This document shows, in pieces, positions 999-19,912 of a stretch of DNA of 64,000 nucleotides. Below the pieces are notes generated by a model. The model did no database searches and had not been told where the DNA came from. It saw only the letters and a list, made by a program, of their open reading frames with translations. The DNA comes from a bacterium. Lineage in GTDB: Bacteria; Patescibacteriota; Minisyncoccia; Minisyncoccales; CG1-02-41-26. How positions within the stretch are numbered: the stretch's first letter is position 1; each line of letters begins with the position of its first letter. Location of the stretch: the NCBI GenBank assembly GCA_030619905.1, contig JAUXAO010000004.1:203-64202 (forward strand), read 5' to 3'. The translations under genes and the position numbers were made by a program.

Positions 999-1072
999 GT
1001 CACCTTTCTTTCTCTCCATCGTTATATTAAGTAGAAAGGTCGTTAAGATATATAATTAATTATTAAAAGAAT

Positions 1073-1654
1073 ATGTTAAAGCCAATTACTACCGTTATTA
1101 TTTCATTGCTTATTGTTGTCGGTGTAAGCTACGGAGCAAGCCATTATATCACTGCTCCAGCAGCAGAAAACGCAAAAGACGCCGGCATTCAAACAATAGA
1201 AAAGGAGGTTGGCGGGGACTTTGAAATAGTTTTGGAGGCCAATCCCACTACCGGCTATCAGTGGACAGTGGAGTTTGATGAAGGGCTTATTGAATTGGTT
1301 GACAGAAACTATATTGTTCAGGAGCCAACCCTTTCAAAAGATGCAATGGGTGAATCTGTTATGGCTCCCAGAGGTGGAGAAATTCAGACCGAGGATTTTC
1401 CCGATGGTGCAAGAGACATTATTGACAGCAATCAGGTTCGAGAACAATGGGCACAGGATCAAATTGATGAAGGAGTTATAGGAATTGAGAACCCGGAAGA
1501 GTCAGAAATGGAGGTTCCGGTTGGTGCCGGAGGGCAGGAATCTTTCAAATTCCTTACTCTGAAAAAAGGAGAGACAGAAATAAAGTTTTCTTACGAGAGA
1601 TCCTGGGAGGAGGAACCGATTGAAACCCTGACCTACAGAGTGGTAATTAAGTAG
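1073..1654 (+). CDS. chagasin-family (I42) cysteine-peptidase inhibitor-like protein with N-terminal membrane anchor
   Basis: LEANPTTGYQWTVEF matches the NPTTG[YF]xW loop motif of the chagasin/ICP family. Hydrophobic N-terminus. AAAGGTCG leader motif at 1035. Confidence 0.75.
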   Translation: MLKPITTVIISLLIVVGVSYGASHYITAPAAENAKDAGIQTIEKEVGGDFEIVLEANPTTGYQWTVEFDEGLIELVDRNYIVQEPTLSKDAMGESVMAPRGGEIQTEDFPDGARDIIDSNQVREQWAQDQIDEGVIGIENPEESEMEVPVGAGGQESFKFLTLKKGETEIKFSYERSWEEEPIETLTYRVVIK

Positions 1655-1660
1655 GATTGC

Positions 1661-1690
1661 AAAAAGCAGGGCCAAGAGCCCTGCTTTTTG
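1661..1690 (+). terminator. intrinsic terminator
   Basis: AAAAAGCAGGG-CCAAGAG-CCCTGCTTTTT perfect hairpin plus T-run directly after the 1654 stop. Confidence 0.8.
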
Positions 1691-1700
1691 CTCTGAGATC

Positions 1701-1709
1701 GTGTAGAAT
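1701..1709 (+). promoter_or_regulatory. -10 box (GTGTAGAAT) placed 6 nt before the ATG, predicting a leaderless sigma-factor mRNA
   Basis: TAGAAT at 1704..1709. The A of the ATG at 1716 is the 7th nt downstream. No SD. Confidence 0.5.
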
Positions 1710-1715
1710 ATACTA

Positions 1716-2258
1716 ATGGAACAGGAAATCATTGAACAATGCAAAAAAGGAAACCTGAAGGAGTTTGAAAAACTCTACGATAGTTATTTTAAGAAAATAT
1801 ACAGGTTCATTTACTACAGAACCGGGCACAAAGAAACAGCAGAAGATATTACCAGCCAGACCTTTATTAAGGCCCTAGAGAAGATTCAAGGATTTGACCT
1901 CGGCAGAGGAACCTTTTCTGCCTGGATTTACTGCATTGCCCGAAATAAAGTAATTGATCATTATCGAACCAGAAAAAGCGAGCTTGATATTTCTGGAGTT
2001 TGGGGCTTGGGCAAAGATCCCAACCCGGATATTGAGGCCAGAGACAGGTTAAGGGAAGCGGAGAATTATCTGAAAAAGATTAAAAAAGACCAGAGAGAGA
2101 TTGTCTTGATGAGGGTTTGGGACGGCTTGTCTTACAAAGAGATTGCTGAAATTACGGGAAAGAACGAGGCAAACTGCAAGATGATTTTCTCCAGGACCAT
2201 AGGAAAACTCAAAGAAGAAATAGTTTTATTATTAATCCTATTAAGCATCTATGGATAA
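1716..2258 (+). CDS. ECF-type RNA polymerase sigma-70 family factor
   Basis: Region 2 (YRFIYYRTGHKETAEDITSQTFIKALE) and region 4 HTH (LSYKEIAEITGKNEANCKMIFSRTIGKLK). Size about 180 aa. Confidence 0.9.
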   Translation: MEQEIIEQCKKGNLKEFEKLYDSYFKKIYRFIYYRTGHKETAEDITSQTFIKALEKIQGFDLGRGTFSAWIYCIARNKVIDHYRTRKSELDISGVWGLGKDPNPDIEARDRLREAENYLKKIKKDQREIVLMRVWDGLSYKEIAEITGKNEANCKMIFSRTIGKLKEEIVLLLILLSIYG

Positions 2259-2847
2259 AAGAGTTAAAGAAATCTTAGAAGATCTCTATCTCATAGACAG
2301 GAGCTTGAGAAAGCACCAAAATGAGCTGGAGAAGCTAATTGAAAAGCTTTTAATGGCAAAACCCGATGTTGAGATTGACGAAGTCTTCAAAGCAAAACTA
2401 AGAGCTGAATTATTAGACAGGGTAGCTGAGTTAAAAGCCAAAAAAGCCTTATTTTGGAATTTCTTTAATTTCCAAAAGTTTTCTTACGTCCATGTCTTAA
2501 GCTTATTTCTTCTTTGTGCTCTTTTGATTGTTCCTGTTGTTTATTATTTGAACAGACCGGCGCCAGCAGAAGAGCCACCCATGCTTGCCAATCCAGCTTC
2601 GGTTTTTTGCGAAGAGCAGGGAGGCGTTTTAGAACATAGAATGGTTGAGGCGGGGCAGAAGGGATTTTGCATATTTGAAGACGGCTCAGAGTGCGGCCAG
2701 TGGGACTTTTTCCGGGGAGAATGCCAGAAAGGAGAAAGATTCTGCAAGGACATGTGCGGTGACGGCATATGCCAGGAGTTTGTCTGCATGGCTCTTGGCT
2801 GTCCTTGTCCTGAGACAAAAGAAACTTGTCCGGAAGACTGCAAATAA
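2251..2847 (+). CDS. membrane protein coupled to the ECF sigma (anti-sigma-like), with extracytoplasmic DUF333-like domain and Cys-rich tail
   Basis: 8-nt overlap with the sigma gene. Cytoplasmic helical N-term, one TM (VHVLSLFLLCALLIVPVVYYL), then NPASVFCEEQGGVLEH...GFCIFEDGSECGQWDFFRGEC (DUF333 pattern) and CGDGICQEF...CPCPETKETCPEDC. Confidence 0.75.
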   Translation: MDKRVKEILEDLYLIDRSLRKHQNELEKLIEKLLMAKPDVEIDEVFKAKLRAELLDRVAELKAKKALFWNFFNFQKFSYVHVLSLFLLCALLIVPVVYYLNRPAPAEEPPMLANPASVFCEEQGGVLEHRMVEAGQKGFCIFEDGSECGQWDFFRGECQKGERFCKDMCGDGICQEFVCMALGCPCPETKETCPEDCK

Positions 2848-2865
2848 ATAATATCTGCAGTTTTT

Positions 2866-2874
2866 TGGTATAAT
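2866..2874 (+). promoter_or_regulatory. extended -10 promoter TGGTATAAT
   Basis: T-tract plus TGgTATAAT, followed 8 nt later by the AAAGGTCA motif and then ORF 2915. Confidence 0.55.
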
Positions 2875-2914
2875 AAGAATGAAAGGTCAAAATTAATAAT
2901 TTAATAATTATTTT

Positions 2915-3058
2915 ATGATGCAAAAAAATTGGATGCTAGGATTTTTTGGGTTCATGGCAGTAAGAGAGATACAAGGACTTTTAGCTGGAAATTATTTAGA
3001 AGCTATTTGGCTTATTTGGCTTGTGTGGTTTATTTATTTTATACCTAAGAAATCATAA
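2915..3058 (+). CDS. small hydrophobic protein (47 aa), below the ORF-track cutoff
   Basis: ATG 2915 to TAA 3056..3058 gives MMQKNWMLGFFGFMAVREIQGLLAGNYLEAIWLIWLVWFIYFIPKKS. It has its own TGgTATAAT promoter and the AAAGGTCA leader motif 31 nt upstream, as neighbouring genes do. Confidence 0.55.
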   Translation: MMQKNWMLGFFGFMAVREIQGLLAGNYLEAIWLIWLVWFIYFIPKKS

Positions 3059-3061
3059 AAT

Positions 3062-3232
3062 AGATTCTAACATCGCCTAGTCAAAACAGGTATCTCAAAA
3101 TACTCTTTTGTGGTTATAAAATAGGTTCAAACGTCGTCTGCTTCCTGGAGTTTTTGAAGCCCGAGATTAGATTCTCGGGTTTTACATTTATCACACAAAA
3201 AATTCGCCAAGAAGGCAGTTTTTTGGTAGAAT
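3062..3232 (+). repeat. intergenic repeat element, copy A (GATTCTAACATCGCC ... GGTATCTCAAAATACTCTTTTGTGGTTATAAAATAGGTTCAAACGTCGTC ... terminators ... TGgTAGAAT)
   Basis: Near-identical 50-nt block shared with 5336..5387. Good hairpin CCCGAGA-TTAGAT-TCTCGGG plus TTTT at 3160..3183. Degenerate CGCCAAGAAGGCAG-T6 module. Ends in the extended -10 at 3224..3232. Confidence 0.7.
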
Positions 3233-3238
3233 GAAAGA

Positions 3239-3508
3239 ATGGAAGAAAAAATTAAGAAACAAAAAAGAAATCCTTTACCGATAAGGCTTCAGATGGCTAT
3301 CATCACAGCAACTTCGTTTTTTATTGCTTTTTCAGTGATAAAATACATTCGGCGAGGCCAATTCGATCTAATAGAAACATTGATTGGTGCTTTAATATTT
3401 TTTGTTGTTTTTTATCTCCTATCGCAAGTGTTTTACAAAAGAAGACTGAAGAAACAAGAAAAAGAGATGGCTGACAAAGATAAAGAAGTTGAGGTAAAAC
3501 AAAAGTAG
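3239..3508 (+). CDS. small membrane protein (89 aa)
   Basis: Two hydrophobic helices and a Lys/Glu-rich tail. The ATG lies 6 nt after TAGAAT (predicted leaderless). Confidence 0.6.
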   Translation: MEEKIKKQKRNPLPIRLQMAIITATSFFIAFSVIKYIRRGQFDLIETLIGALIFFVVFYLLSQVFYKRRLKKQEKEMADKDKEVEVKQK

Positions 3509-3519
3509 AAATAACTAAT

Positions 3520-3768
3520 ATGAAATTATCTATTGACGCAAAACTTGGTATTTTAACCGTAATTTGTCAATTGGCTATTCTTGTCGTGTGTAAAAATATC
3601 CTTCATATCCAAACGAACCTTCTAACAGGTTACGGACCCATTTTCGTATTTTTGATATATGTATTTTCAAAAGATCAAATGAAAGAATCGGATCGGAATC
3701 CTTTATATTGGGGTGCGGCAATAATATTTGTAACCTTAGCCTTAATAATATTGTATGCGTTTTTCTAA
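3520..3768 (+). CDS. small membrane protein (82 aa)
   Basis: Three hydrophobic segments. Tightly follows 3239..3508. Confidence 0.55.
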   Translation: MKLSIDAKLGILTVICQLAILVVCKNILHIQTNLLTGYGPIFVFLIYVFSKDQMKESDRNPLYWGAAIIFVTLALIILYAFF

Positions 3769-3835
3769 TTTTGATAGAGTAGAAGAAATGAAGTAAAATT
3801 AAAGTAGAAAACTATTAAACAAGCGAAAAACAAAA

Positions 3836-4570
3836 ATGACAAACAAAACACAAAAACTAATAGGCATAAAGGATCTATTGCGAAATTCTTGGAATATCTA
3901 TAAAAAGGATTTCAAGAAGTTTTTAGTAATTGCGGTTATCTTTTTTGGAATCACCAGTTTAATGATGACCTTTATCGGCCTGGAAATTCCTCAAATTCCC
4001 GAAGCGAAAGTCCAGCCTGCGCCTACTCCTACTTTTACTTTTATGCCCACCAGAGCTGAACCACTTTTTACTGTGCCCTGGTATTTGTTCTTCCTTATTA
4101 TTTTAACTACTTTCTTCATTAGTATCTGGGGAAATGCTTCTCTTATCTCTGCGATTAAAGAAGTTCCTAAAGATTGGAAAGTTAAGAGTGCACTTAAAGA
4201 AGGTTGGTCTAAATATTGGCCTTTCTTTTTGGTTTCTCTATTAACTGGGCTGGTCGTTGGGTTGGGATTTCTGCTTTTAATAATTCCCGGTGTTATTTTT
4301 GCTGTCTGGTTTGTTTTTTCTGCTTACATAGTCATCTGCGAAGACAAAAGAGGATTTAAAGCCCTTTCCAGAAGCAGACAATTAGTTAAAGGATACTGGT
4401 GGCCGACAGCCAAGCGAGTTTATGCTGTAATGATTATTGTCATTCCTCTTTCTCTGGGCGCCCAATTTATTCCTTATCTTGGTCAGTTTGCCTATCTGAT
4501 TCTCTTTACTCCATTTTTTATAATTTACAACTATCTCATCTACCAAAATCTTAAAGAAATAAAAGGTTAA
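3836..4570 (+). CDS. polytopic membrane protein
   Basis: 244-aa ORF with several long hydrophobic helices. Abuts the next gene (stop TAA then ATG). Confidence 0.65.
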   Translation: MTNKTQKLIGIKDLLRNSWNIYKKDFKKFLVIAVIFFGITSLMMTFIGLEIPQIPEAKVQPAPTPTFTFMPTRAEPLFTVPWYLFFLIILTTFFISIWGNASLISAIKEVPKDWKVKSALKEGWSKYWPFFLVSLLTGLVVGLGFLLLIIPGVIFAVWFVFSAYIVICEDKRGFKALSRSRQLVKGYWWPTAKRVYAVMIIVIPLSLGAQFIPYLGQFAYLILFTPFFIIYNYLIYQNLKEIKG

Positions 4571-5272
4571 ATGACCAGAAATAAAAAAATCATTATTGTC
4601 TTATTTGCTATTGTAATTTTATTAAGTAGTGTATGGTTATTGTTAGATTCTCACACTAAATGCAAATTGATTTACGGAAAGAATATCTGCAATTTTTATG
4701 AAATGATGGATACTGTAAACCACAATCCCGAAAGTTCCGATTTTGAAAAGGCAGTGGAATTGTGCCGAGAAATGGAAGATGTTCCTAAAAAAGATAGCTG
4801 TTTTGAATATATCGCCCAAGTGGTTTCTTTTTATGATATAGAGAAAGCAAAAGAGGCGTGCGGTGAAATTAGAGAATTTGACGGAGTTCATAGTAGGGAA
4901 GATTGCTATAGCATGGTTGAAAAATCAATTGAAGAAAGATTAGCTGAATCTGCGGTTATTGCCTTTATGGAAGCTCGCATACAAAGGAATGAAGAGATGG
5001 CTCTTCCTTGGCTCACAGATAATGCTGAGGGGCAGTATCTTTTACGAAGCGATTTGCCTTTAACTGGGCTTTCAAATCCTCATTTTGCTGATTTTGAGGT
5101 TTTAGAGAGAGAAAAATTGGATGACGCCCAATTTAAATTCAGAGTAAGAATTTACGAAGAATATACTGGACAGGGCAGGGTAGGATATTTTGACGAAACC
5201 TTGATTGTAATAAAAAGCGAAGATAATTATCTAATAGATTCCTTTGAGCGAAGCGAATATACCAATCTCTAA
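4571..5272 (+). CDS. hypothetical protein with N-terminal membrane anchor
   Basis: 233-aa ORF. N-terminal TM (IIIVLFAIVILLSSVWLLL). No recognisable family. Confidence 0.6.
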   Translation: MTRNKKIIIVLFAIVILLSSVWLLLDSHTKCKLIYGKNICNFYEMMDTVNHNPESSDFEKAVELCREMEDVPKKDSCFEYIAQVVSFYDIEKAKEACGEIREFDGVHSREDCYSMVEKSIEERLAESAVIAFMEARIQRNEEMALPWLTDNAEGQYLLRSDLPLTGLSNPHFADFEVLEREKLDDAQFKFRVRIYEEYTGQGRVGYFDETLIVIKSEDNYLIDSFERSEYTNL

Positions 5273-5296
5273 ATTAGGATTAGTAACTCATTAGAC

Positions 5297-5448
5297 AGGT
5301 TCTAACATCGTCCAACCTTAGGGCTAATTAAAACCGGTATCTCAAAATGCTCTTTTGTGGTCATAAAATAGGTTCGAACGTCGTCCCACTTGCGGAGCTC
5401 CGATTTTTCAGCCGCCGTCTCGCCAAGGAGGCAGTTTTTTGGTAAGAT
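5297..5448 (+). repeat. intergenic repeat element, copy B
   Basis: AGGTTCTAACATCGTCC (5297..5313), 50-nt block 5336..5387 (3 mismatches to copy A by eye), internal second unit AGGTTCGAACGTCGTCCC, degenerate CGCCAAGGAGGCAG-T6, then a duplicated TGGTAAGAT box. Confidence 0.7.
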
Positions 5449-5466
5449 TTGGTAAGATAAGATAAA

Positions 5467-5826
5467 ATGAACAAAGAAGTTAATAATTATATAAAAAAAC
5501 AAAAATCTCCCCAGAAAGAAATTTGTCAGAGATTAAGGAAGATTATTTTGAAGACGCTTCCTGATATTAAAGAGGAGTTAAAGTGGGGGACACCGTGGTA
5601 TGAAGGAAAGTATTATATTGTTGCGCTCAGAGACCACGTGAATATGGGATTTACTCTTGGGGGGTTATTGAAAAAATCTGAAAAGCTATTAGAAGGAACT
5701 GGGGAATATATGAGACATATTAAGATTTATTCTTTGAAAGATATTGATGAGAAGAAGATTATAAAGTTAGTGAAAATGACAACGAAAGATGTTTATGATT
5801 ATAGAAAAAGAAGAAAAAATAAATAA
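5467..5826 (+). CDS. DUF1801 (YdhG-like) domain protein
   Basis: ICQRLRKIILKTLPDIKEELKWGTPWYEGKYYIVALRDHVNMGF is the typical YdhG/DUF1801 pattern. Confidence 0.7.
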   Translation: MNKEVNNYIKKQKSPQKEICQRLRKIILKTLPDIKEELKWGTPWYEGKYYIVALRDHVNMGFTLGGLLKKSEKLLEGTGEYMRHIKIYSLKDIDEKKIIKLVKMTTKDVYDYRKRRKNK

Positions 5827-5840
5827 TTATCTCACTAAAC

Positions 5841-5899
5841 AGGTTCTAACATTGTCCGTTCCTCGGATCCGAGAAAAATCGCCAAGAAGGCGATTTTTT
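5841..5899 (+). repeat. intergenic repeat element, short copy C, including a perfect terminator
   Basis: AGGTTCTAACATTGTCC (5841..5857), palindrome CTCGGATCCGAG, then a 10-bp hairpin AAAAATCGCC-AAGAA-GGCGATTTTT (5874..5899) running into TGaTAAGAT. Confidence 0.7.
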
Positions 5900-5916
5900 G
5901 ATAAGATAAGATATAT

Positions 5917-6903
5917 ATGAGTAGAAAAAAAGCTAAAAAATTAATAATCAAAACAAAGTTAGAAATAATCCCAACCACCCCTTTTCACTTTGATTCAACA
6001 ATTTATAAACCTGGCCATTTTTCTACTACTGATACGGAATGGATAGCTGGTAAGCGTTGGCAAACAACGCTATGGCAGGAAGAAACCTTAGGGCTACTTT
6101 TTGAGGATAAAGGAACATTGATGAAACCCAAGATAAATTTATATGTTTTCTCAGAAAGAAAATTAACAAAAGATTTTCTAAGAAGTGTAAGAAATGAAAT
6201 GGTTTACAGATTCAATCTTGATTTAGATTTAAAAGAATTTATAGATAGCTTTAAACATGACCTTGTCCTTAGAGCTTGCCTCAAAAAATTAAAAGGAATG
6301 AGGCCAATGACCCACGGTTCTTTATATGATTATTTAGTTATTGCCATAGTGCTTCAAAATGCCCCTGTTAGAAGAAGTGTTAGCATGATGCAATCTCTTT
6401 TTGAGAACTACGGTGTTTTATTGAGATACGATAGAAAGGAACTTTATTGTATGTGGAAACCTGAAGTCATGGCCAATGTTCCAGAAGAAGAGCTTAGAAA
6501 ATTAAAAATAGGATACAGAGCAAAGAGCCTTATTAGAGTCTCTAAACCTTTTGCCAGGGGAGAAATTAATGAAATGGAACTTAGAAAGAAATCCCCAGAA
6601 GAACAAAAGAAAATTTTGTTAGGCTTATATGGAATAGGTCCTCAATCTGTAGGATACATTATGGGCGACATATTTCACCACTGGGATTTTTTAGAACACA
6701 TTTCTCCTTGGGAAGGAAAAATTCTTTCTAAAATAATATTTGGTACAAAGATAGATAGACCTGTTTCTGAGAAAAAACTTCTTGAATTCTTTGAAAAATA
6801 CGAAAAATACAAAGCTTTAGCAGCCAATTATATTTGGGAAGATATTTTCTGGAAAAGAAAAACCCAGAAAATAGATTGGCTTGAAAAAGAAATTAGATTA
6901 TAA
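5917..6903 (+). CDS. HhH-GPD superfamily DNA glycosylase (AlkA/Ogg-like)
   Basis: Helix-hairpin-helix LLGLYGIGPQSVGYIMGD. Size and layout match base-excision glycosylases. Confidence 0.7.
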   Translation: MSRKKAKKLIIKTKLEIIPTTPFHFDSTIYKPGHFSTTDTEWIAGKRWQTTLWQEETLGLLFEDKGTLMKPKINLYVFSERKLTKDFLRSVRNEMVYRFNLDLDLKEFIDSFKHDLVLRACLKKLKGMRPMTHGSLYDYLVIAIVLQNAPVRRSVSMMQSLFENYGVLLRYDRKELYCMWKPEVMANVPEEELRKLKIGYRAKSLIRVSKPFARGEINEMELRKKSPEEQKKILLGLYGIGPQSVGYIMGDIFHHWDFLEHISPWEGKILSKIIFGTKIDRPVSEKKLLEFFEKYEKYKALAANYIWEDIFWKRKTQKIDWLEKEIRL

Positions 6904-6912
6904 TCAAAGAAT

Positions 6913-7275
6913 ATGAAATTAACTGAAAAACAATTAGATTTATTAAATCGTAGAAAGTTAGTAGTTTTGGCGACTTCAAGTTTAGATGGAAAACCGAGAG
7001 CGATTATTGTTGAAGTTAACCAGGTTAAAGATGATAAGATAATTATTACTGATAATGAGATGGAGACAACGAGAAAGAATTTATTAGAAAACAAAAATGT
7101 TTTCATTTTAGCTTTTGAAGAAGATTATCATTATGGATTAAAGATTTCAGGCGAGGCAGAGTATTATACAGAGGGTGAATACTTTGGTTTTGTAAAGAAT
7201 TTAGAAACTAATAAAGATTTTTCTCCTAAAGGAGCAGTAGTGATAACAGTAAAAGAAATAGTTGAATTTAAGTAA
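6913..7275 (+). CDS. pyridoxamine 5'-phosphate oxidase-like FMN-binding split-barrel protein
   Basis: VVLATSSLDGKPRAIIVEV...IIITDNEMETTRKNLLENKNV pattern. About 120 aa. Confidence 0.65.
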   Translation: MKLTEKQLDLLNRRKLVVLATSSLDGKPRAIIVEVNQVKDDKIIITDNEMETTRKNLLENKNVFILAFEEDYHYGLKISGEAEYYTEGEYFGFVKNLETNKDFSPKGAVVITVKEIVEFK

Positions 7276-7290
7276 TTATCCCAATTAGCC

Positions 7291-7360
7291 GGGTTCTAAC
7301 ATCCACTATTAGCCAAAGAAAAAAATTGCCAATCTATTTTTCAACGGAGGCGGTTTTTTG
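7291..7360 (+). repeat. intergenic repeat element, degenerate copy D
   Basis: GGGTTCTAACATCC flanked by direct ATTAGCC heptamers, then a degenerate hairpin plus T6 running into TGaTAGAGT. Confidence 0.5.
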
Positions 7361-7472
7361 ATAGAGTGGAATAATTTTGGTTAAGTAAGAAGAAATGGCA
7401 TTGAATTTTTGAAAATGGTATAATTAAATAATTTTTAAAGGTCGAGAGTTCTTAATTAACTTATTCTAAAGT

Positions 7473-7787
7473 ATGGAAGAAGTAACAAAGAAAGAAAAAA
7501 ATACTGGTATGGCAATTGTTGCCTATATCCTTTTCTTTATTCCCTTGTTGACTGATGCAAAAAATGACCCTTTTGTGAAATACCATGTCAAACAGGGATT
7601 AAGTCTTTTTCTGGTTGCTGTTGCGATTCGAATAATAGCTTACATTCCTATTTTCGGCTGGGCTTTAGTTTGGCCTTTAAACATTCTTCTTTTTGTCCTT
7701 TTTATTATCGGGGTTATGCATGCTCTTAATGGCGAACAAAAACCACTTCCTGTAATTGGTAAATTCGGTGAGAAGTTTAAATTTTAA
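7473..7787 (+). CDS. DUF4870-like small membrane protein
   Basis: KNTGMAIVAYILFFIPLLTDAKNDPFVKYHVKQGLSLFLV matches the DUF4870 signature. TGgTATAAT at 7416..7424 and the AAAGGTCG leader. Confidence 0.7.
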   Translation: MEEVTKKEKNTGMAIVAYILFFIPLLTDAKNDPFVKYHVKQGLSLFLVAVAIRIIAYIPIFGWALVWPLNILLFVLFIIGVMHALNGEQKPLPVIGKFGEKFKF

Positions 7788-7826
7788 AAAAGGTCGGAAA
7801 CAAAAAAATAATAATAAATTAATACT

Positions 7827-8495
7827 ATGAAAAAAATAGTAATAATTATAGTTCTAATAGCGTTAGTTGGAATCGGGGCTTGGCTTTTGCTGGGTGGCGA
7901 AGAAGCGGTTTCACCGGGCGAAGAGGAAGAAGAAGCAGAAACAGAAACGGAACTATCATTAACTGAGATTTTAGGAAAGGCAAAAGGTATAACTTCTTTC
8001 AAATACGATATGGTGGCAACTTCTCCAGAAGGGGAAGTAATGACGACAAAAATATGGTGGGAAGGAAAGAAGATGAGGATGGAAGGAACATTTGAGGGAA
8101 AGAGAATGGTCTATTTGGTTGATGTAGATGAACAGTTAGCCTATATGTATTTTCCAGCAGAAAATACAGCTATGAAAATAGGCCTAGGCAAGGCTCAGGA
8201 AACAGCAGGAGAATCTCCGACTGAACAATCCGAATCCATTGTGAAATATAACCCTGTGACCCTTGGTACTGAAACTCTGGACGGAAAGAGTTGTCTGGTG
8301 ATTGAATACACTACAGAAACAGACGATGTAAAGATGTGGGTATGGACAAAATACGGATTGCCCATTAAGACGGAATCAACAACAGATGAAGGAACCTCAG
8401 TAATAGAGCTAAAGAATATAGATTTTGGTGATATTTCTGACAGTATGTTTGAATTGCCAGCCGGTGTTCAAATAATGCAAATACCAAGTTTTTAA
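7827..8495 (+). CDS. secreted LolA-like/DUF4367-like protein
   Basis: Signal anchor, acidic linker, then a beta-rich domain resembling LolA-like lipoprotein-sorting folds (KIWWEGKKMRMEGTFEGKRMVYLVD...). Confidence 0.6.
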   Translation: MKKIVIIIVLIALVGIGAWLLLGGEEAVSPGEEEEEAETETELSLTEILGKAKGITSFKYDMVATSPEGEVMTTKIWWEGKKMRMEGTFEGKRMVYLVDVDEQLAYMYFPAENTAMKIGLGKAQETAGESPTEQSESIVKYNPVTLGTETLDGKSCLVIEYTTETDDVKMWVWTKYGLPIKTESTTDEGTSVIELKNIDFGDISDSMFELPAGVQIMQIPSF

Positions 8496-8527
8496 AGGTC
8501 GAATAAAAAATAATAAAGATAATATAT

Positions 8528-9753: not shown

Positions 9754-9803
9754 ATTATGGTAAGATTAAAAAAGGTCGAAAAGATTAATCATTAATAAAA
9801 AAT

Positions 9804-10583: not shown

Positions 10584-10661
10584 GATTAAAAAACATAGAA
10601 TTATCAAAAAAGCGATTTTTTGATATACATACCAAAGGTCAAAATTAATAATTAAAATATT

Positions 10662-11276: not shown

Positions 11277-11325
11277 AGTTTTGAGTTTATTTAAGTAAAG
11301 GTTGGAGATTAAAACTAAATAGGAC

Positions 11326-14156: not shown

Positions 14157-14249
14157 TCATGAAGGATTGTCTTCGCTTTTTGATGAAGATGATTTTCTGG
14201 TAGAATAGAAATATCAAGGTCAAATACAAGTAAATAATATTTAAAAAAT

Positions 14250-14471
14250 ATGGACAATAAAACTTTAAAAAGTTTGAGGGAAGATTTAATAGGGGAGTTG
14301 GCTGCTATTAATCAATATCAGGAGCACATAGATGAGATTGACGATGAAGAGGTTAAAAAGATTCTAAGCCATATTAGAGATGATGAGAAAGAACACGTTG
14401 CTGAAATAACAAAGATTATCAGAAAATTGGACGAAACCCAGGAAGAGAAGTTTCGAAAAGAAGGGCTTTAA
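14250..14471 (+). CDS. EncFtn-like (encapsulated-ferritin family) ferritin-like protein
   Basis: LIGELAAINQYQEHIDEI...KKILSHIRDDEKEHVAEITKIIRKLD matches the EncFtn pattern (LIxELEAxxxYxQ...ILxHxRDEEKEH). Confidence 0.65.
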   Translation: MDNKTLKSLREDLIGELAAINQYQEHIDEIDDEEVKKILSHIRDDEKEHVAEITKIIRKLDETQEEKFRKEGL

Positions 14472-14554
14472 TCTGATAGAGAAATTTGAATGATATTCAA
14501 TTGGAAGAGTAAATAAAAAAAATCGCTATTGTAACAGTTTTTTGATATAATAAA

Positions 14555-14986
14555 ATGATGAAAAAATCTTTGATAATAACATTTTGGGTATTAATAGGAT
14601 CTTTTCTTTTCGTAATAGGTCAATTTTTTATCCCGGCAGTTACAGAATTATTCAGAGGTTCTTTATTTTTTTTATTGCCATTTGTTATTTTTTCTTTATT
14701 GGGCGGACTATTGATATTTTTAACTCTGAAGGAAAAAATAGAAGAAAAACTTAAAAAACTCTTAATATTAACCGGAGCTTCAGCAGCTGGATTTTTTGTC
14801 TTTGTTTTATTACACAATGTTTTTTATGCCTTGGGCGTAATAGCCAGTAGTATTGCTATCTTAAGATATCTAATGGAGATTCTTCATGTGACGTTTTTCC
14901 TTATTGCAATTTTTATTTGTCCTTTAGGGTTTTTAATTGGTGCCATAGGTAGTATAATCGTTCTTGTTAAAAGAAAAAGATTATAA
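14555..14986 (+). CDS. polytopic membrane protein
   Basis: Four hydrophobic helices. TGaTATAAT ends 3 nt before ATG 14555 and 6 nt before the in-frame ATG 14558, so 14558 may be the leaderless start. Confidence 0.6.
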   Translation: MMKKSLIITFWVLIGSFLFVIGQFFIPAVTELFRGSLFFLLPFVIFSLLGGLLIFLTLKEKIEEKLKKLLILTGASAAGFFVFVLLHNVFYALGVIASSIAILRYLMEILHVTFFLIAIFICPLGFLIGAIGSIIVLVKRKRL

Positions 14987-15012
14987 ATCAAGGGCAAATT
15001 AGTTAGTTTTTT

Positions 15013-16728
15013 ATGGATTTTTTTCAGGAACTCAAATCTAACTGGAAATCTGTTTTGATTATATTTATCCTCTTCACTCTTATTGAAGGGGGAATTTTAT
15101 ATTTGTCTACCCTAGAAGAAGATTCTATAAGATATTCTACATATACTAATATTTACAAGCCTAAATGTTCTAATGATGTTTGTCGATTTAGAAATTCGAT
15201 TACAGATTTTGTAATGGAAGCAGCTGAGAACTATTTTGATGAACAACCAACAGAATACCCAGAAAAATTAAAAATTAAAGGCAACTGGGAAATTCACGTA
15301 ACTATGTATTATCAGGGGGAAATCAAAGGAAAAGGACAAGGGAAGAATGAAATATTATCATTAGCATTGGAACAGGCAACAAAAAATATTTTTAATGATA
15401 AAAGAGCTGAAGATTTAACTGAAGAAAATATTGAAGATGCGACGTTCTTGGTTAAATTTTTATCACCTCCTGAACAATTTTCTTTTATTGGATACAAAGG
15501 AGAGGGGAGAGAAAGCATTGATGATTTAATATTGATACGGGAAATAAGTAAAGAGTTAATTCTGGAAAAAATCAGACAGGGAAAAGAATTTTTATATAGA
15601 ATGGTTAATGAAGAAAAACAGGGGTTTTATAAAAAATACGATGTTTTAAATGACAGTTTTGAAGAAAGATTATACACTCCTTATTCTGCTTCAATTATAT
15701 ATACTTTCTTATATATTTATGATTTGGAAAAAGATGAAGAAATCTTAAAACATATACCTGCTTGGGGAGATTTTCTCCTTTCTATGCAGAATAAAGATAA
15801 AGAAGATAAAGCATACGGGGCTTTTTCTTATTCTTTTTATCTGGATAAAAATGAAAAACAAAAGAGATTTGTAGTAGGATCAAGTGCTTTGAGCATATTT
15901 ACCTTATTGAGATTATATGATTTGACTAATGACTCAAGGTATTTAGAATCAGCGAAATTAGCTGGTGATTGGCTGGCTACAATGCAGAATCCTGATGGCA
16001 GTATGAAGGCTTATTTAGAGTATTCAAAAGGAAAATGGGTTTATGGTGAAAAGCTGTCTCTTCTTTATAATGGCCAGGTTCTTTCTTCTCTTTCCAAACT
16101 CTATGAGGCTACTAATGATGAGAAATATTATGATACAGCCAAAGGAATTGCTGAATTATTTGCTGAAGAATATGAGAAAGAAAAAGGTTATATTGAGGGA
16201 GAGTACCGGAGCAAAAATCCAATTTCAAATGCTTGGGTAGTAATGTCATCAATAGATCTTTACAAAGCAAGTCCAGATGAACGCTATAAAGGAATAATCT
16301 TTGAATTGAGTGAGAAGATTTTAGCTAATCAAAGGAATAATGAAGATGACCTCTTGTATTATGGTGGCTGGGGTGGAGCATATTCATCAAGCGGAATTGG
16401 TTGGATAAGTGAGGTAATGACCGAAACTTATAGATTTTGTCAGGAAGAGAGAGGAGAAGATTGTGATAAATACAAACAAGCTGTAATAAAAGCAATAAGA
16501 TGGCTTATTCAGAATACTTATTCAGAAGAAAATAGTTTTTTCCTTGAAAATCCAGAAAAAGCAATAGGAGGTGTTTTTTGGAACAAGCTGAATAAATATG
16601 TAAGAACTGATTCAGTATGCCATGCTTTGAATGGCTATATCAGAATAATAGATGATTTAGACGATGGATTATTGCTTTTAGTGCCAGAGAAATCTTTTGG
16701 AGAGATTTTAGAAGAGATAAGAGATTAA
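15013..16728 (+). CDS. membrane-anchored protein with alpha/alpha-toroid (prenyltransferase/terpene-cyclase-like repeat) domain
   Basis: N-terminal TM. Repeated QNxDG-type motifs (MQNPDGSMKAY, MQNKDKEDKAYGAF, GGWGGAYSSSG) typical of squalene-cyclase-like repeats. Family assignment is tentative. Confidence 0.55.
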   Translation: MDFFQELKSNWKSVLIIFILFTLIEGGILYLSTLEEDSIRYSTYTNIYKPKCSNDVCRFRNSITDFVMEAAENYFDEQPTEYPEKLKIKGNWEIHVTMYYQGEIKGKGQGKNEILSLALEQATKNIFNDKRAEDLTEENIEDATFLVKFLSPPEQFSFIGYKGEGRESIDDLILIREISKELILEKIRQGKEFLYRMVNEEKQGFYKKYDVLNDSFEERLYTPYSASIIYTFLYIYDLEKDEEILKHIPAWGDFLLSMQNKDKEDKAYGAFSYSFYLDKNEKQKRFVVGSSALSIFTLLRLYDLTNDSRYLESAKLAGDWLATMQNPDGSMKAYLEYSKGKWVYGEKLSLLYNGQVLSSLSKLYEATNDEKYYDTAKGIAELFAEEYEKEKGYIEGEYRSKNPISNAWVVMSSIDLYKASPDERYKGIIFELSEKILANQRNNEDDLLYYGGWGGAYSSSGIGWISEVMTETYRFCQEERGEDCDKYKQAVIKAIRWLIQNTYSEENSFFLENPEKAIGGVFWNKLNKYVRTDSVCHALNGYIRIIDDLDDGLLLLVPEKSFGEILEEIRD

Positions 16729-16735
16729 TAAAAAT

Positions 16736-17221
16736 ATGCCATTTACACCATTTCATTTAGGACCAAGTTCTTGGATAGGACTGGTTTTATTTAAGATTTT
16801 TGATTTTCCTGCGCTTCTTATAGCCAGTATTGTGGTTGACACTGAACCTTTTTGCGTTCTCTTTTTCAATTTGAATTATCCTGTTCATGGATTTTTTCAT
16901 AGTTTTTTAGGTGGTTCGATATTAGCAGTCTTAACAGCCATAATTTTAAATCTTTTGAAAAACAGGATTAAAAAGATAATGGCTATTTTTAAATTAGATC
17001 AGGAATCCTCATTTAAAAAAATCCTTTGGACGTCATTTTTTGGCGTTTATTTCCATCTTGTTCTTGATTCATTTTTGTATGAAGAAATGAAGCTGTTTTA
17101 TCCTTTTGAAGGTAATCCCTTTTTTGGTTTGTTCTCGTTCTACCAAGTTTATCTTTTTTGTAGTTTATCCTTTTTAGTCGGAATATCATTTTATTTAATA
17201 ATGCTTAAAACCCGACGTTAG
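16736..17221 (+). CDS. polytopic membrane protein (possible membrane-bound metal-dependent hydrolase fold)
   Basis: 161-aa hydrophobic ORF with His-containing helices (PFTPFHLGP, HGFFHSFLGG, YFHLVLD). Confidence 0.55.
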   Translation: MPFTPFHLGPSSWIGLVLFKIFDFPALLIASIVVDTEPFCVLFFNLNYPVHGFFHSFLGGSILAVLTAIILNLLKNRIKKIMAIFKLDQESSFKKILWTSFFGVYFHLVLDSFLYEEMKLFYPFEGNPFFGLFSFYQVYLFCSLSFLVGISFYLIMLKTRR

Positions 17222-17305
17222 ACATATCATAAAGACTCTCTTGACTCCTTAATTTGTAGTATAATCCTATAAAGGTCGGAAATTGATTAATATAAAAACA
17301 AAACT

Positions 17306-17518
17306 ATGCCTTTTTTCAAATGGGCAGACAATTGCGTTAAAAAATTTAATTGGATAGATATTAAATTAATTAGTCTGGCAGGTATACTTATCGGAATAAT
17401 ATTAGTAAAATGGATTCCTTCTCTCTTAAATATTAATGTCTGGTGGTTTATTGTAATAGCTGCTTTGTGTCTTGTTAAGGTCTATTGTGTAGCATTTTCC
17501 AAAAAGGAAGTTGTTTAG
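17306..17518 (+). CDS. small membrane protein (70 aa)
   Basis: Two TM helices. TATAAT at 17260..17265 and the AAAGGTCG leader. Confidence 0.55.
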   Translation: MPFFKWADNCVKKFNWIDIKLISLAGILIGIILVKWIPSLLNINVWWFIVIAALCLVKVYCVAFSKKEVV

Positions 17519-17531
17519 TTTTGAAATTAAC

Positions 17532-17560
17532 TTGACAAAATGAAACTTTTCCTGTACATT
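17532..17560 (+). promoter_or_regulatory. sigma-70-type promoter TTGACA-N17-TACATT for the RRM gene
   Basis: TTGACA at 17532..17537, 17-nt spacer, TACATT at 17555..17560. Predicts a 5' UTR of about 77 nt. Confidence 0.55.
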
Positions 17561-17643
17561 TGAAAAACGTTCCTTTTTTATTGAAAAGGAAATGTCGTGC
17601 TCTCTAAGAGTAGGTCGTAAATAATCATTAAGTTTAAGAGAAA

Positions 17644-17943
17644 ATGGAGAAAAAACTTTACGTAGGAAGTCTTTCTTATGACACAACTGAAGATAGTCTT
17701 AAGGATCTATTTTCCAAAGCTGGAAAAGTAGAATCCGCAACTGTTATCATTGACAAGATTTCTGGAAGATCAAAGGGTTTTGGTTTCGTAGAAATGTCTA
17801 CCGAAGATGAAGCCAAAAAGGCAAAAGAAATGTTTAATGAAAAAGATTTAGATGGAAGAAAGATCATTGTTGACGAAGCCAAACCGATGAAAAAGAAACC
17901 TTTCAGAGAATTTTCCGGTCCTAAGGAAAATTTTGGTGAATAA
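17644..17943 (+). CDS. RRM-type RNA-binding protein
   Basis: RNP-2 KLYVGSL and RNP-1 KGFGFVEM motifs. 99 aa. Confidence 0.93.
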   Translation: MEKKLYVGSLSYDTTEDSLKDLFSKAGKVESATVIIDKISGRSKGFGFVEMSTEDEAKKAKEMFNEKDLDGRKIIVDEAKPMKKKPFREFSGPKENFGE

Positions 17944-17971
17944 AATTTCAAAGAAAAAACTTCTAATTAAC

Positions 17972-17995
17972 AAAAGAGCCCTTCAGGGCTCTTTT
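17972..17995 (+). terminator. intrinsic terminator
   Basis: AAAAGAGCCC-TTCA-GGGCTCTTTT. Confidence 0.85.
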
Positions 17996-18070
17996 GGCTT
18001 TCTTTGATTATTAAAAATTGTTATAATAGATTCATTAAAAAGGTCAAATAAATTTGAAAATAAATCATAT

Positions 18071-18868
18071 ATGGATAGTCAAATTTTTAAGAACTTAGAA
18101 GAAAAAAACAAAATTCTCTTTACAGGACTTCTCATTATTTTAACTGTTTTCTTGCTGGCTTTAACTATTTATACTGTTGTCGCTGTTCAGAATAAAATTA
18201 GAGAAGGGAAATATATTGGACAGGAGATTGAATCAAGAAATACAATTACGGTTTTTGGTAAAGGGGAGATCTATGCCAGGCCGGATTTAGCTATAACTAC
18301 TTTCTCTGTTGTAATCGAGAAAAAGACGGTTAGTGAAGCCATGAACGAAAATACAGAAAAGATGAATACAATAATTGATTCTATGAAAGAACAGGGAGTA
18401 GAGGACAAGGATTTAAAAACCACTAGTTTTAATATCTATCCTCGTTATGACTGGTATAATGAAACCAGTTTTTATCCTCAAGGGAGAAGAGTATTGGTTG
18501 GTTATGAAGTTCGCCAGTCCTTACAAGTAAAAATCAGAGACATGGAGAAAATAGGAGAGATTATTCAAGGAGCGACTGATGCCGGGGCTAACCAGGTTGG
18601 TGATTTGCAGTTTACTATTGATGATGAAGATGAGTTTAAAAAACAAGCCAGAGGAGAAGCAATTGAGAAAGCCAAAGCCAAGGCAGAAGAACTGGCTTCC
18701 CAATTAGGTGTTAAACTGGTCAGAATCGTTAATTTTAGCGAAAGCGGTATAGTTCCTCGTTATTATGCTCTTGAGGAATCAATGGGAATAGGAGGAGAAG
18801 CACCGGGAATAGAGGTGGGTGAAAACAAGATAGAAGTCAATGTAACTATAATTTACGAGATTAATTAA
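18071..18868 (+). CDS. SIMPL/DUF541 family periplasmic/envelope protein
   Basis: TM anchor, then ITVFGKGEIYARPDLAITTFSV...GYEVRQSLQVKIRD...ENKIEVNVTIIYEI, typical of SIMPL (26-kDa periplasmic immunogenic protein) proteins. Confidence 0.8.
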   Translation: MDSQIFKNLEEKNKILFTGLLIILTVFLLALTIYTVVAVQNKIREGKYIGQEIESRNTITVFGKGEIYARPDLAITTFSVVIEKKTVSEAMNENTEKMNTIIDSMKEQGVEDKDLKTTSFNIYPRYDWYNETSFYPQGRRVLVGYEVRQSLQVKIRDMEKIGEIIQGATDAGANQVGDLQFTIDDEDEFKKQARGEAIEKAKAKAEELASQLGVKLVRIVNFSESGIVPRYYALEESMGIGGEAPGIEVGENKIEVNVTIIYEIN

Positions 18869-18869
18869 A

Positions 18870-19067
18870 ATGAAAACACTAAACATCTTAGGTTTAATAG
18901 TTTTCTCAGCTGGAGCTTTAACTTTAATTGGTTTTGGCTTTTACAAGTTTTTTGAGGATTCAACTATTTCTCCTATAGTCAGGTGGGGGACTATTGCTGT
19001 AATATTAGGAGTAGTTATTATTTTAGTCTCCCTTATCAAGGAAAGATTAAAAGAAAAAGAAATATGA
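18870..19067 (+). CDS. small membrane protein (65 aa)
   Basis: Two TM helices. Starts 1 nt after the previous stop. ATGA overlap with the next gene. Confidence 0.55.
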   Translation: MKTLNILGLIVFSAGALTLIGFGFYKFFEDSTISPIVRWGTIAVILGVVIILVSLIKERLKEKEI

Positions 19068-19381
19068 TACTAACAACAATAAACAATATTCCTGGGAAAC
19101 AGATTAGAGAAACATTAGGTTTAGTCCGGGGCAATACTATTCGGGCCAAACATATTGGCAAAGATATTTTAGCTGGTTTTAGAAATATTGTTGGTGGAGA
19201 AATTAAAGAATACACAGAGGCTTTAAATGAAGCCAGGGATGAGGCTATGAAAAGAATGCTGAAACAAGCTGAAGAACTAGGGGCAGACGCAATTATAGGT
19301 ATTCGTTTTACCACTTCCCAGATAATGTCCGGGGCAGCTGAACTTTTAGTTTACGGTACAGCTATTAAATTAGGAGAATAA
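19064..19381 (+). CDS. YbjQ/UPF0145 family protein
   Basis: MILTTINNIPGKQIRETLGLVRGNTIRAKHIGKDILAGFRNIVGGEI...ADAIIGIRF. The track start 18983 was moved to ATG 19064 (ATGA overlap with the upstream stop). Confidence 0.85.
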   Translation: MILTTINNIPGKQIRETLGLVRGNTIRAKHIGKDILAGFRNIVGGEIKEYTEALNEARDEAMKRMLKQAEELGADAIIGIRFTTSQIMSGAAELLVYGTAIKLGE

Positions 19382-19423
19382 ATCTGTTTGTCTTTTAATA
19401 TTCATTGTCAAATGTCTTTTTAT

Positions 19424-19451
19424 TTGACAAAATTTTAGGGTTTGCTATAAT
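19424..19451 (+). promoter_or_regulatory. promoter TTGACA-N16-TGcTATAAT embedded in a 9-bp inverted repeat
   Basis: TTGACA at 19424..19429 and TATAAT at 19446..19451. TTGTCAAAT (19405..19413) and ATTTGACAA (19422..19430) form a perfect inverted repeat. Confidence 0.6.
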
Positions 19452-19457
19452 ATGTTT

Positions 19458-19576
19458 GATAATAGTATGGCAGAATTGCTATACTATTTTTATTATAAAA
19501 AGACACCTGTGGGTGCCTGAATTGGATTAATTTCCATCCTCCTTCGGGTACCCGCAAGTGTCCTTTTTTATTTTTT
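19458..19576 (+). ncRNA. candidate small RNA (about 120 nt) ending in a long hairpin plus U-tract
   Basis: Sits downstream of the 19424 promoter. 16-bp stem 19502..19517 / 19547..19562 (1 mismatch, 2 G-U), 27-nt loop exposing CCTCCTT (19538..19544), then T6-A-T6. Confidence 0.4.
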
Positions 19577-19657
19577 AAATTTCCTGCCCTACCTCTTGAC
19601 AAATTTTTGTCCTACCCTTGACAAGATATTATTTTTAAGATAATCTTAATTATCTTC

Positions 19658-19686
19658 TTGACAACATTATTTTGAAAGTATAATAT
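19658..19686 (+). promoter_or_regulatory. promoter TTGACA-N17-TAATAT (or N15-TATAAT) for the TasA-like cluster
   Basis: Third of three TTGACA boxes (19596, 19618, 19658). The first two lie in CCTACC(T)CTTGACAA direct repeats. Confidence 0.5.
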
Positions 19687-19912
19687 CTTATTATAACATA
19701 AAATAAGTCAATAGTATGCCCTTAGGAGGAAAGGGAAAAAGTTGTGCCTTATTATTTAGACGGCAACAAATCAATAAAGAATAAAACAAGATTATCGTCT
19801 CTCTTTTTGCTTGGGGAGATTTTTTATTTTAAAAAAAGAAAGAAATTGAAAATTAGTTAGGGAGGAATTTTTAAAAGGTCGAAAAAATAATTAATTAAAG
19901 TAAGAAAAAAAC

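Follow-up and report, generated by a model that had tools for sequence, protein, structure and literature searches.

Short sequence elements upstream of genes are known from several systems, and each shares some features with the box described here, AAAGGTCGA, which lies about 30 bases ahead of a specific gene set in a 64-kb stretch of Patescibacteria DNA (assembly GCA_030619905.1, contig JAUXAO010000004.1; "the window" below means this whole stretch of 64,000 nucleotides). First, the GGA sites of CsrA/RsmA are short, single-stranded leader motifs that are oriented with the gene, mark a defined gene set, and are read posttranscriptionally, as we propose for the box. However, CsrA sites read A(N)GGA, are usually in hairpin loops, are often paired, and overlap the Shine-Dalgarno (SD) sequence, while the box, AAAGGYCGA, is a single, unpaired element that comes no closer than 26 nt to the start.

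Second, STAB-SD and other 5'-proximal ribosome-binding stabilizers of Bacillus mRNAs, reportedly described by Agaisse and Lereclus in 1996, share with the box an SD-like purine core that lies close to the leader's 5' end and far from the start, and have been proposed to protect mRNA from 5' attack. STAB-SD is a full complement of the 16S rRNA tail, GAAAGGAGG, whereas the box matches it in AAAGG only and not in its conserved TCGA; unlike STAB-SD, the box also occurs between cistrons and is kept in a genome with a 16S rRNA that lacks CCUCC. Third, the footprints of PPR and HAT proteins in chloroplasts (e.g., PPR10 at atpH) define processed mRNA 5' ends. These sites precede the start by some 25 to 50 nt, both between cistrons and at primary ends, where they block 5' exonucleases and promote translation. 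They are gene-specific, 17 to 20 nt long, and read by PPR proteins, whereas the box is one 9-nt element common to many cistrons, and in a bacterium.

Fourth, the ops element of RfaH resembles the box in being short and oriented and in lying within the transcribed leader of SD-poor genes related to the envelope. The ops sequence, GGCGGTAGnnTG, occurs once per operon and is read in nontemplate DNA by a NusG paralog, whereas the box differs in sequence and is repeated for each cistron. An ops-type element of RfaH or another NusG paralog was rejected on this sequence difference and on three consecutive cistrons that each carry a box. Finally, the letters GTCAAA or GTCGAA and an association with stress genes are common to extracytoplasmic function (ECF) sigma factor promoters, the CtsR operator (tandem RGTCAAA heptads), and the 0A box of Spo0A (TGTCGAA). 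Unlike these sites, the box has no -35 AAC partner and no tandem heptad, and its copies are also intercistronic and always transcribed. The CtsR operator itself (RGTCAAA-NAN-RGTCAAA) was rejected, as the box is a single heptad-like unit and the positions after it are not conserved.

Leaderless initiation (group C) and non-SD, A-rich initiation (GeneMarkS-2 group B, Bacteroidota) are known general background (PMC6028130). They account for the A/U-rich, SD-less leaders of the window, for an ATTAAT-type signal at -11 to -25, and for -10 boxes 6 nt before ATGs; however, such signals are genome-wide and precede most genes, whereas the box is an extra element further upstream, before only a subset of genes. 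A literature search for AAAGGTCGA returned primer-like matches only, among the matches listed, and our literature searches found no paper on leader motifs of the candidate phyla radiation (CPR). The box appears to be undescribed.

Placement and enrichment of the box

The box core is AAAGGYCR(A), 8 to 9 contiguous nt, and its consensus in the window is AAAGGTCR followed by an A-rich stretch. An earlier reading of the DNA, made without database searches (the sequence-only reading), had listed 12 copies of AGGTC with 12 matching ATGs at distances of 36, 31, 34, 36, 32, 31, 26, 33, 33, 32, 30, and 37 nt, and all of these values are correct. Of the 41 AGGTC words on the plus strand, 13 fall in noncoding DNA, although this is only 9.6% of the window, and 12 of those 13 are at -26 to -37 of a start; in noncoding DNA, the reverse complement is found three times. 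Among the 41 genes that have their own upstream spacer of at least 25 nt, 12 carry the box at -26 to -37, as compared with a mean of 0.17 after shuffling of each spacer, and none of 20,000 shuffles reached 12. The word itself is not overrepresented: AAGGTC has 30 matches on both strands of the window, as compared with 30.9 expected, and its frequency in relatives is ordinary. A DNA uptake sequence, Chi, or another genome-wide oriented word was rejected for this reason.

The 12 copies are all on the plus strand. The form AAAGGTCG is found at 1035..1042, 36 nt before ATG 1073 of a secreted chagasin-type peptidase inhibitor; at 7437..7444, 34 nt before ATG 7473 of a DUF4870 membrane protein; at 7789..7796 (AGGTC at 7791), an intercistronic copy 36 nt before ATG 7827 of a DUF4412/LolA-like protein; at 8494..8501 (AGGTC at 8496), also intercistronic, 32 nt before ATG 8528 of a 348-amino-acid secreted, anchored protein; at 9771..9778, 31 nt before ATG 9804 of an SPFH/Band 7 protein; at 17271..17278, 33 nt before ATG 17306 of a 70-amino-acid membrane protein; and at 19874..19881 (AGGTC at 19876), 37 nt before ATG 19913 of a secreted protein with a camelysin-like N terminus. 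The form AAAGGTCA precedes a 47-amino-acid membrane protein (2882..2889, 31 nt before ATG 2915), an N-terminally anchored Cys-rich protein (10634..10641, 26 nt before ATG 10662), and a SIMPL/DUF541 protein (18039..18046, 30 nt before ATG 18071). The variant CAAGGTCA at 14215..14222 is 33 nt before ATG 14250 of a cytoplasmic EncFtn-like protein, and a degenerate box, GTAGGTCG, at 17610..17617 (AGGTC at 17612) is 32 nt before ATG 17644 of an RRM RNA-binding protein, inside a longer 5' untranslated region (UTR).

Beyond these 12, a variant that had been reported before gene 37410 is real: AAAGGTTA at 37369..37376, on the plus strand, is an intercistronic copy 39 nt before ATG 37410 of a short-chain dehydrogenase. 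A second variant, absent from the sequence-only reading, is AAAGGTTG at 11297..11304, also on the plus strand, 27 nt before ATG 11326 of a DUF5671 membrane protein. The claim that no box precedes ribosomal or other core genes holds for noncoding DNA; within coding DNA, however, AAAGGTCAGGAA occurs twice, at 36143-36154 (42 nt before open reading frame [ORF] 36186) and at 50270-50281 (34 nt before ORF 50305, in a ribosomal-protein cluster). The latter contains AAAGGTCA at 50270..50277 on the plus strand, and the former a similar copy at 36143-36150. These coding-embedded copies are only possible members of the set, with 2 of 10 coding copies in the distance range (P of ~0.02, a weak signal). 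Before the probable tuf gene (ATG 46965), TGATATTTTAGGTTTTATG in 46930-46964 has AGGTT 30 nt ahead of the ATG and immediately behind a -10-like TGaTATTTT; this AGGTT might represent a divergent form of the box or a coincidence.

Nothing else is conserved at a fixed distance from the box. An information-content profile of the 12 window copies revealed no further conserved column or second block from -40 to +45, and 13 copies from relatives have no fixed downstream block or second half-site. These results bear on the second hypothesis of the sequence-only reading, in which the box is a -35 element (or, in a variant considered here, a -10 element) of promoters for the ECF sigma factor encoded at 1716, giving leaderless or short-leader transcripts. 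The gene list does resemble an envelope stress regulon, a gene pair for an ECF sigma factor and its anti-sigma factor is nearby both in the window and in one relative (L163), and GTCAAA and GTCGAA resemble ECF -10 elements. Nevertheless, there is no conserved partner element at a fixed spacing on either side (-35 AAC or -10 CGT/GTC at 16 to 18 nt) and no conserved G/C-containing -10 element in the leader, while the upstream positions are taken by sigma-70 extended -10 boxes at variable gaps. Moreover, insertions of 9 to 14 nt upstream and 40 to 80 nt downstream of the box are tolerated, and the ECF gene at 1716 itself has no box, being preceded by a terminator and then by TGtAGAAT 6 nt before its ATG; the ECF gene of L163 likewise has a leaderless promoter and no box. 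We consider an ECF promoter extremely improbable.

Conservation among relatives

For comparison, we used loci surrounding the genes of SPFH homologs (160 loci) and of DUF4412 homologs (nine loci), cited below by L numbers. The nearest relatives of the SPFH protein of the window are encoded by metagenome-assembled Patescibacteria (CPR) of the Staskawicz-, Kuenen-, and Moranbacteria type. A protein 100% identical to the DUF4412 protein is encoded on an NCBI contig of 72,321 nt. Orthologous gene families in 17 related contigs have retained the box while its flanks have diverged; these families are DUF4870, DUF4412, the gene next to it, SPFH, and EncFtn-like. In the SPFH upstream regions, 11 of 132 loci have a co-oriented box, as compared with 3.1 expected, and none of 2,000 shuffles reached 11; the matches are concentrated among the closest relatives. 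The box at 9771 has been retained before the SPFH orthologs of L161, L083, L087, L021, L118, L086, and L088.

The operon encoding DUF4870, DUF4412, and a third protein (7473, 7827, and 8528 in the window) is syntenic in L161, L162, L163, L165, L166, and L168, with 72 to 87% protein identity, and the spacers around its boxes have diverged or been rebuilt. Nevertheless, AAAGGYCGA precedes all three cistrons in five of the syntenic loci and two of the three in L166. The box at 7437 is kept before the DUF4870 orthologs of all six, as is the intercistronic box at 7789 before those of DUF4412, and the box at 8494 is kept in L161, L162, L163 (as AAAGGCCG), L165, and L168. In five genomes, UAAAGGUCGA in the spacer before the third gene includes the stop codon TAA. 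For the EncFtn-like family, the window, L165, and L168 share a separate variant, tCAAGGTCAa, with a gap of 10 nt from TGgTAnAAT, and L086 has AAAGGTCAt.

Membership in the set has limits in both directions. The box is absent before ftsZ, the genes for enolase and GAPDH, rpoD, a cold shock gene (csp), and other genes of the same loci, and other relatives have it before the genes for HU and transketolase, atpE, and a gene for a zinc-ribbon protein (L081, where the gene is on the minus strand and the box is co-oriented with it). The leaders of RRM genes carry GGTCGAC in L168 and GTCGAC in L099, at -32 and -38; a degenerate GGUCG(A) at -32 to -38 is found in three genomes, including the window.

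Variation in the box is almost wholly by transitions (T/C, C/T, and G/A), which is compatible with G-U wobble and so with a trans-acting antisense small RNA (sRNA) that would pair with the box through a seed containing GACCUUU(U). An 8-nt linear motif across a regulon is typical of seed pairing, and the structured spacer at 852-1003 holds GGGACCTTTTGG, the complement of AAAAGGTC, and ends in a terminator; this is the only lead, GGGACCUUUUGG. However, chance alone would place one complementary 8-mer in the 6 kb of noncoding DNA with an estimated P of ~0.06 to 0.12, GGGACCTTTTGG occurs in none of the 160 related loci, the RNA of the spacer has no evident promoter, and the transition bias possibly reflects mere mutation spectra. 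We regard an sRNA target as highly improbable. The spacer at 852-1003, which follows the gene at 210-851, has a minimum free energy of -48.7 kcal/mol (z = -3.1) and could be an sRNA or a 3' UTR, although the related loci have no counterpart of it.

Gene starts and transcript context

The window has a G+C content of 34% and a positive GC skew throughout, and its long ORFs are all on the plus strand. Initiation is mostly leaderless or SD-less and A/U-rich, and gene starts fall into three classes: leaderless, canonical SD (few), and SD-less with an A/U-rich leader. In the first, an extended -10 box, TGnTAnAAT, is 6 to 9 nt before the ATG, as at 1716, 3239, 5467, 5917, 11855, 27285, and 63212; in related loci, the gap from the extended -10 box to the ATG peaks sharply at 6 nt (33 of 189 boxes). 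Canonical SD genes, such as those at 25492, 27699, 29150, and 60048, have GAAAGGAG 7 to 10 nt upstream of the start, and a well-placed SD is present in only ~5 of 82 window genes. In the third class, the A/U-rich leaders are 25 to 35 nt long, and the box genes are a subset of this class.

The leaderless layout is widespread, both in the window (including 14555) and in related loci, and TGnTAnAAT is often fused to the T-run of the preceding terminator. A repeated cassette that combines a terminator with a promoter, tcgccaagaaggcRRttttttGRTAaGAT, is present in four copies within the first 6 kb (~975-1000, ~3200-3232, ~5415-5445, and ~5875-5905), and its hairpin, cgccaagaaggcg, is also present in L161, L163, L165, and L168. 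Two loci from other CPR lineages, L099 and L143, have their own recurring sequences directly after TATAAT, e.g., TACCTGATAGTTCT and CTGATAGTTTTATA; lineage-specific transcript start motifs may be common in this group.

The sequence-only reading had placed -10 boxes upstream of eight copies of the box, and this observation can be sharpened. A -10-like hexamer is 6 to 14 nt before the A of AGGTC in 9 of the 12 copies, with a TG extension in 6 of the 9. One example is the extended -10 box TGgTATAAT at 2866..2874 on the plus strand, which ends 9 nt before the A of AGGTC; equivalent hexamers are at 1023-1028, 7419-7424, 7778-7783 (weak), 9761-9766, 10624-10629, 14201-14206, 17260-17265, and 18022-18027, and the box at 17271 follows a TTGACT-N17-TATAAT promoter by 5 nt. 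Leaderless genes use these same elements at similar gaps, and from the 6-nt gap of such genes we infer that promoter-proximal transcripts begin within a few bases of the box.

Such positions would also suit a transcription factor (probably one that represses) that recognizes the box as duplex DNA, either at the transcription start or slightly beyond it, and that acts as a roadblock at intercistronic copies. In favor of this DNA-level operator, 9 of the 12 window copies are over the predicted +1 to +8, the gene set is regulon-like and conserved, the EncFtn family keeps the -10 box, gap, and box as one block while the leader diverges, and L162 has palindromic copies, GCGACCTnAAGGTCGC. However, the site is 8 to 9 nt long and asymmetric, with no second half-site in 46 copies; its orientation is always that of the gene; and it is never upstream of or over the -35 and -10 boxes. 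Copies that have no promoter weigh further against it. In the window, the copies at 8496, 17612, and 19876 lack a usable -10 box, and the sole candidate for the copy at 7791 is weak and within the C-terminal codons of the upstream gene. Two of these four had been described as directly following a stop codon, which is borne out: the box at 7791 begins 1 nt past the stop at 7785-7787, and that at 8496 overlaps TAA at 8493-8495. The copy at 17612 does lie within a longer 5' UTR, ~45 nt downstream of a predicted promoter at 17532-17560, and the copy at 19876 is in a 531-nt spacer, downstream of a terminator-like hairpin at 19797-19820 and with no -10 box nearby. Among 46 copies in 18 contigs, 22 are 5 to 14 nt after a strong -10 box, and ~13 are truly intercistronic, 0 to 14 nt after the upstream stop codon and without a promoter. 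What the two groups share, therefore, is a place in the transcript upstream of the initiation region and not a place in a promoter. A DNA-level operator is possible in our view, though doubtful.

Because the copies follow either -10 boxes or stop codons, the box is transcribed, gene-oriented, and present once per cistron. The same two contexts would suit a processing or punctuation signal, where a sequence-specific endoribonuclease or a block to a 5' exonuclease makes a defined 5' end and internal cistrons thereby gain a free 5' end like that of primary transcripts. The organism leans on 5'-end-dependent (leaderless) initiation with hardly any SD, and hairpins that occur just 3' of the box in some relatives would stabilize such ends. 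On the other hand, to our knowledge, bacterial endoribonucleases that act on A/U-rich mRNA need no 9-nt, G/C-containing site, and a processing signal leaves unexplained why the box is restricted to one set of families. We consider this explanation distinctly unlikely.

The spacer at 19382-19912, which holds the copy at 19876, has other features of its own. A perfect sigma-70 promoter, TTGACA-16-TGcTATAAT (19424-19451), is followed by hairpins and a terminator (19546-19563), and this unit is a candidate sRNA. Further along are three cttgacaa repeats (19596-19665) and a second promoter (19658-19686), which, with the terminator-like hairpin at 19797-19820, are ahead of gene 19913.

The leader and the distance to the start codon

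Between the box and the ATG, the 12 leaders are 20 to 31 nt long. They are not pure A/T, as the sequence-only reading had it, but have a G+C content of ~9% (29 of 319 nt), as compared with 27% in upstream spacers generally; the SD-less leader at 7797..7826 on the plus strand, between the box and ATG 7827, is one example of this A/U-rich type. The ATTAAT reported in these leaders is present in exact form in 7 of the 12 but is not specific to box genes. In 1,671 upstream regions from the fetched loci with a G+C content of at most 45% among L001-L160, mostly CPR, AATTAA/ATTAAT peaks at -11 to -25 before starts (70 per 5-nt bin over a background of ~12). As a general signal of the fetched loci, it is a feature separate from the box, and it may be a CPR-wide non-SD initiation signal. 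Upstream mini-ORFs beginning at the ATT of ATTAAT were rejected, since the spacing to the box varies from 3 to 14 nt and ATTAAT is general in CPR and low-GC loci.

A search of Rfam gave no relevant match at the gathering threshold or at an E value of at most 1. When the 12 leaders were folded, no shared structure emerged, the box was mostly unpaired, and no pairing of the box with the early coding region was found. With no Rfam family and no common fold, a structured cis-regulatory RNA (riboswitch, leader, or thermometer) was ruled out. A likeness of AGGUCG to a tRNA variable loop and T-stem was also rejected, as no T-arm follows the box.

Distance to the ATG, which had been proposed as the conserved feature, is conserved in the window but is not absolute. 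For the 46 copies, the median distance is 34.5 nt, 36 are at 45 nt or less, and none is closer than 26 nt; the range is 26 to 37 nt in the window and 27 to 117 nt in relatives, where eight copies are at 61 to 117 nt. All eight have a longer, more G+C-rich leader, mostly because a GC-rich hairpin has been inserted 3' of the box. Different GC-rich hairpins resembling repetitive extragenic palindromes are at or just 3' of the box in L086 (9866-9905), L162 (4475-4560 and 5290-5310), L166 (1395-1420), and L168 (5830-5870). In L162, a repeated hairpin, GCGACCTnAAGGTCGC, has the box as its 3' arm, and in L162 and L166, one hairpin pairs CCUCC with GGAGG.

A leader with a purine-rich box near its 5' end raises the possibility of a partial SD at a distance, where AAAGG would pair with CCUUU at the 3' end of 16S rRNA as a 30S standby site or as a 5'-end shield similar to STAB-SD. 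The few canonical SDs of the window and its relatives read GAAAGGAG or GAAAGGA, 7 to 10 nt before starts, and the box therefore shares the SD core of the lineage, AAAGG; the box is also 5' proximal in an unstructured leader. Nevertheless, a spacing of 26 to 37 nt is too long for SD function, and since true SDs of the window are at 7 to 10 nt, it excludes a classical SD, as the sequence-only reading had argued. Moreover, the invariant TCG(A) is not complementary to the 16S tail, and the better-pairing AAAGGAGG is never at -30 in noncoding leaders. Only AAAGG of the box could pair with CCUUU. The 16S rRNA itself could be checked in one relative, L088. This locus has two boxes (AAAGGCCG and AAAGGTCG) even though its 16S rRNA ends in GGAUCAUUUCU, without CCUCC. 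A distant SD is very unlikely.

L088 is from a close relative, with an SPFH protein 81% identical to that of the window. Its positions 1 to 1575 hold the 16S 3' domain with an ~800-nt intron that contains a LAGLIDADG-type ORF. The 3' tail reads GGATCATTTCTATTC, so the anti-SD CCTCC is missing, and CCTCC is found nowhere in the 4.3-kb locus. Sequence complementary to the box is found in two internal segments of this rRNA (UGGCCUUU in helix 34 and GGACCUU near helix 28); both regions are paired and buried, and so we rejected pairing with them and treat the complementarity as coincidence.

A proposed RNA-level operator and its putative reader

The box is real, transcribed, oriented with its gene, present once per cistron, unpaired, conserved at orthologs, and independent of a nearby promoter. 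The first hypothesis of the sequence-only reading, a 5'-leader site for a trans-acting factor, agrees with every test applied here, including those of transcribed strand, copy number per cistron, pairing, length (8 to 9 nt), and conservation. The features that one would look for in an operator of an RNA-binding protein (transcribed, oriented, single-stranded, short, and attached to a conserved gene set) are all present. We therefore tentatively prefer a reading that is plausible but falls short of probable, namely, that the box acts as an operator in the RNA, where it would lie at the 5' edge of the initiation region of genes in a small conserved regulon and be read by a putative sequence-specific factor. 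Here, we infer action in RNA rather than in DNA, a protein reader, and a direction of effect.

Under this proposal, the box would be a single-stranded cis operator of 8 to 9 nt at the 5' edge of the SD-less, A/U-rich translation initiation region of each cistron. The regulon would include genes for DUF4870, DUF4412/LolA-like, the downstream secreted protein, SPFH, EncFtn-like, SIMPL, the chagasin-type inhibitor, and several small membrane proteins. The box would be the binding site of a sequence-specific RNA-binding factor that acts in trans; the candidate is the RRM protein encoded at 17644-17943, which has a degenerate box in its own leader. Once bound, this factor might control how strongly the downstream cistron is expressed in one of two ways: it might shield or define the 5' end of an A/U-rich leader that is otherwise unprotected, or it might help or block ribosome access. 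Eight to nine contiguous conserved nucleotides would be the size of a site for a single RNA-binding domain, and the minimal distance of 26 nt from the box to the AUG would fit a factor that sits beside, and not under, the initiating ribosome. One report describes bacterial RRM proteins as binding specific mRNAs and ribosomes (PMC12232666).

Several points weigh against an RNA-level operator. RNA-level action is deduced only from position, and the nine promoter-proximal copies of the window overlap the predicted +1 to +8, a location also suited to a repressor that binds DNA. Four relatives tolerate GC-rich hairpins in the interval from box to ATG, which means that the box need not be tied to the start codon by a strict geometry. 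The candidacy of the RRM protein draws only on its co-occurrence with the box and its degenerate site. Some relatives have the box before the genes for HU and transketolase and before atpE, and so regulon membership is not fixed. Finally, codon adaptation does not differ between box genes and other genes (Mann-Whitney P = 0.86).

What the target genes have in common was also considered. The sequence-only reading had suggested that the box marks secretome mRNAs, and an N-terminal hydrophobic segment is indeed predicted for 10 of 12 box genes, as compared with 10 of 29 other promoter-proximal genes (Fisher P = 0.005). However, this contrast loses significance when only the first 21 kb, which are rich in membrane proteins, are considered (P = 0.14), and cytoplasmic box genes exist (EncFtn-like and RRM in the window; HU and transketolase in relatives). 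The conserved trait is membership of particular families and not secretion as such. The list (SPFH, SIMPL, ferritin-like, LolA-like, chagasin-type inhibitor, DUF4870, and small membrane proteins) resembles an envelope and oxidative stress set.

A bolder form of the proposal may be stated too. In it, AAAGGUCGA would be a 5'-leader tag read by a small RRM protein, a posttranscriptional regulon address at primary 5' ends and after stop codons that defines or protects the 5' ends of cistrons and licenses SD-independent, 5'-end-dependent ribosome loading for the envelope and stress set. We think this unlikely as a whole. If true, it would be a bacterial counterpart of the protein-defined mRNA ends of organelles or of the leader motif regulons of eukaryotes, in a lineage that could be seen as abandoning SD pairing.

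Implications for regulation in Patescibacteria

Almost nothing is known of regulation in Patescibacteria (CPR), which cannot grow alone and have few recognizable regulators. In a phylum where regulation is essentially unexplored, the box would be a cis-regulatory leader element that defines a regulon. The finding supplies a short conserved cis element, a conserved target set (SPFH, EncFtn-like, DUF4870, DUF4412/LolA-like, SIMPL, and others), and two contexts, at the transcript start and after the stop codon. Should the box prove to be a DNA operator instead, it would still mark the first candidate regulon for the lineage. As an RNA element, it would offer a handle on posttranscriptional control in CPR bacteria and on how their SD-less, leadered cistrons are expressed.

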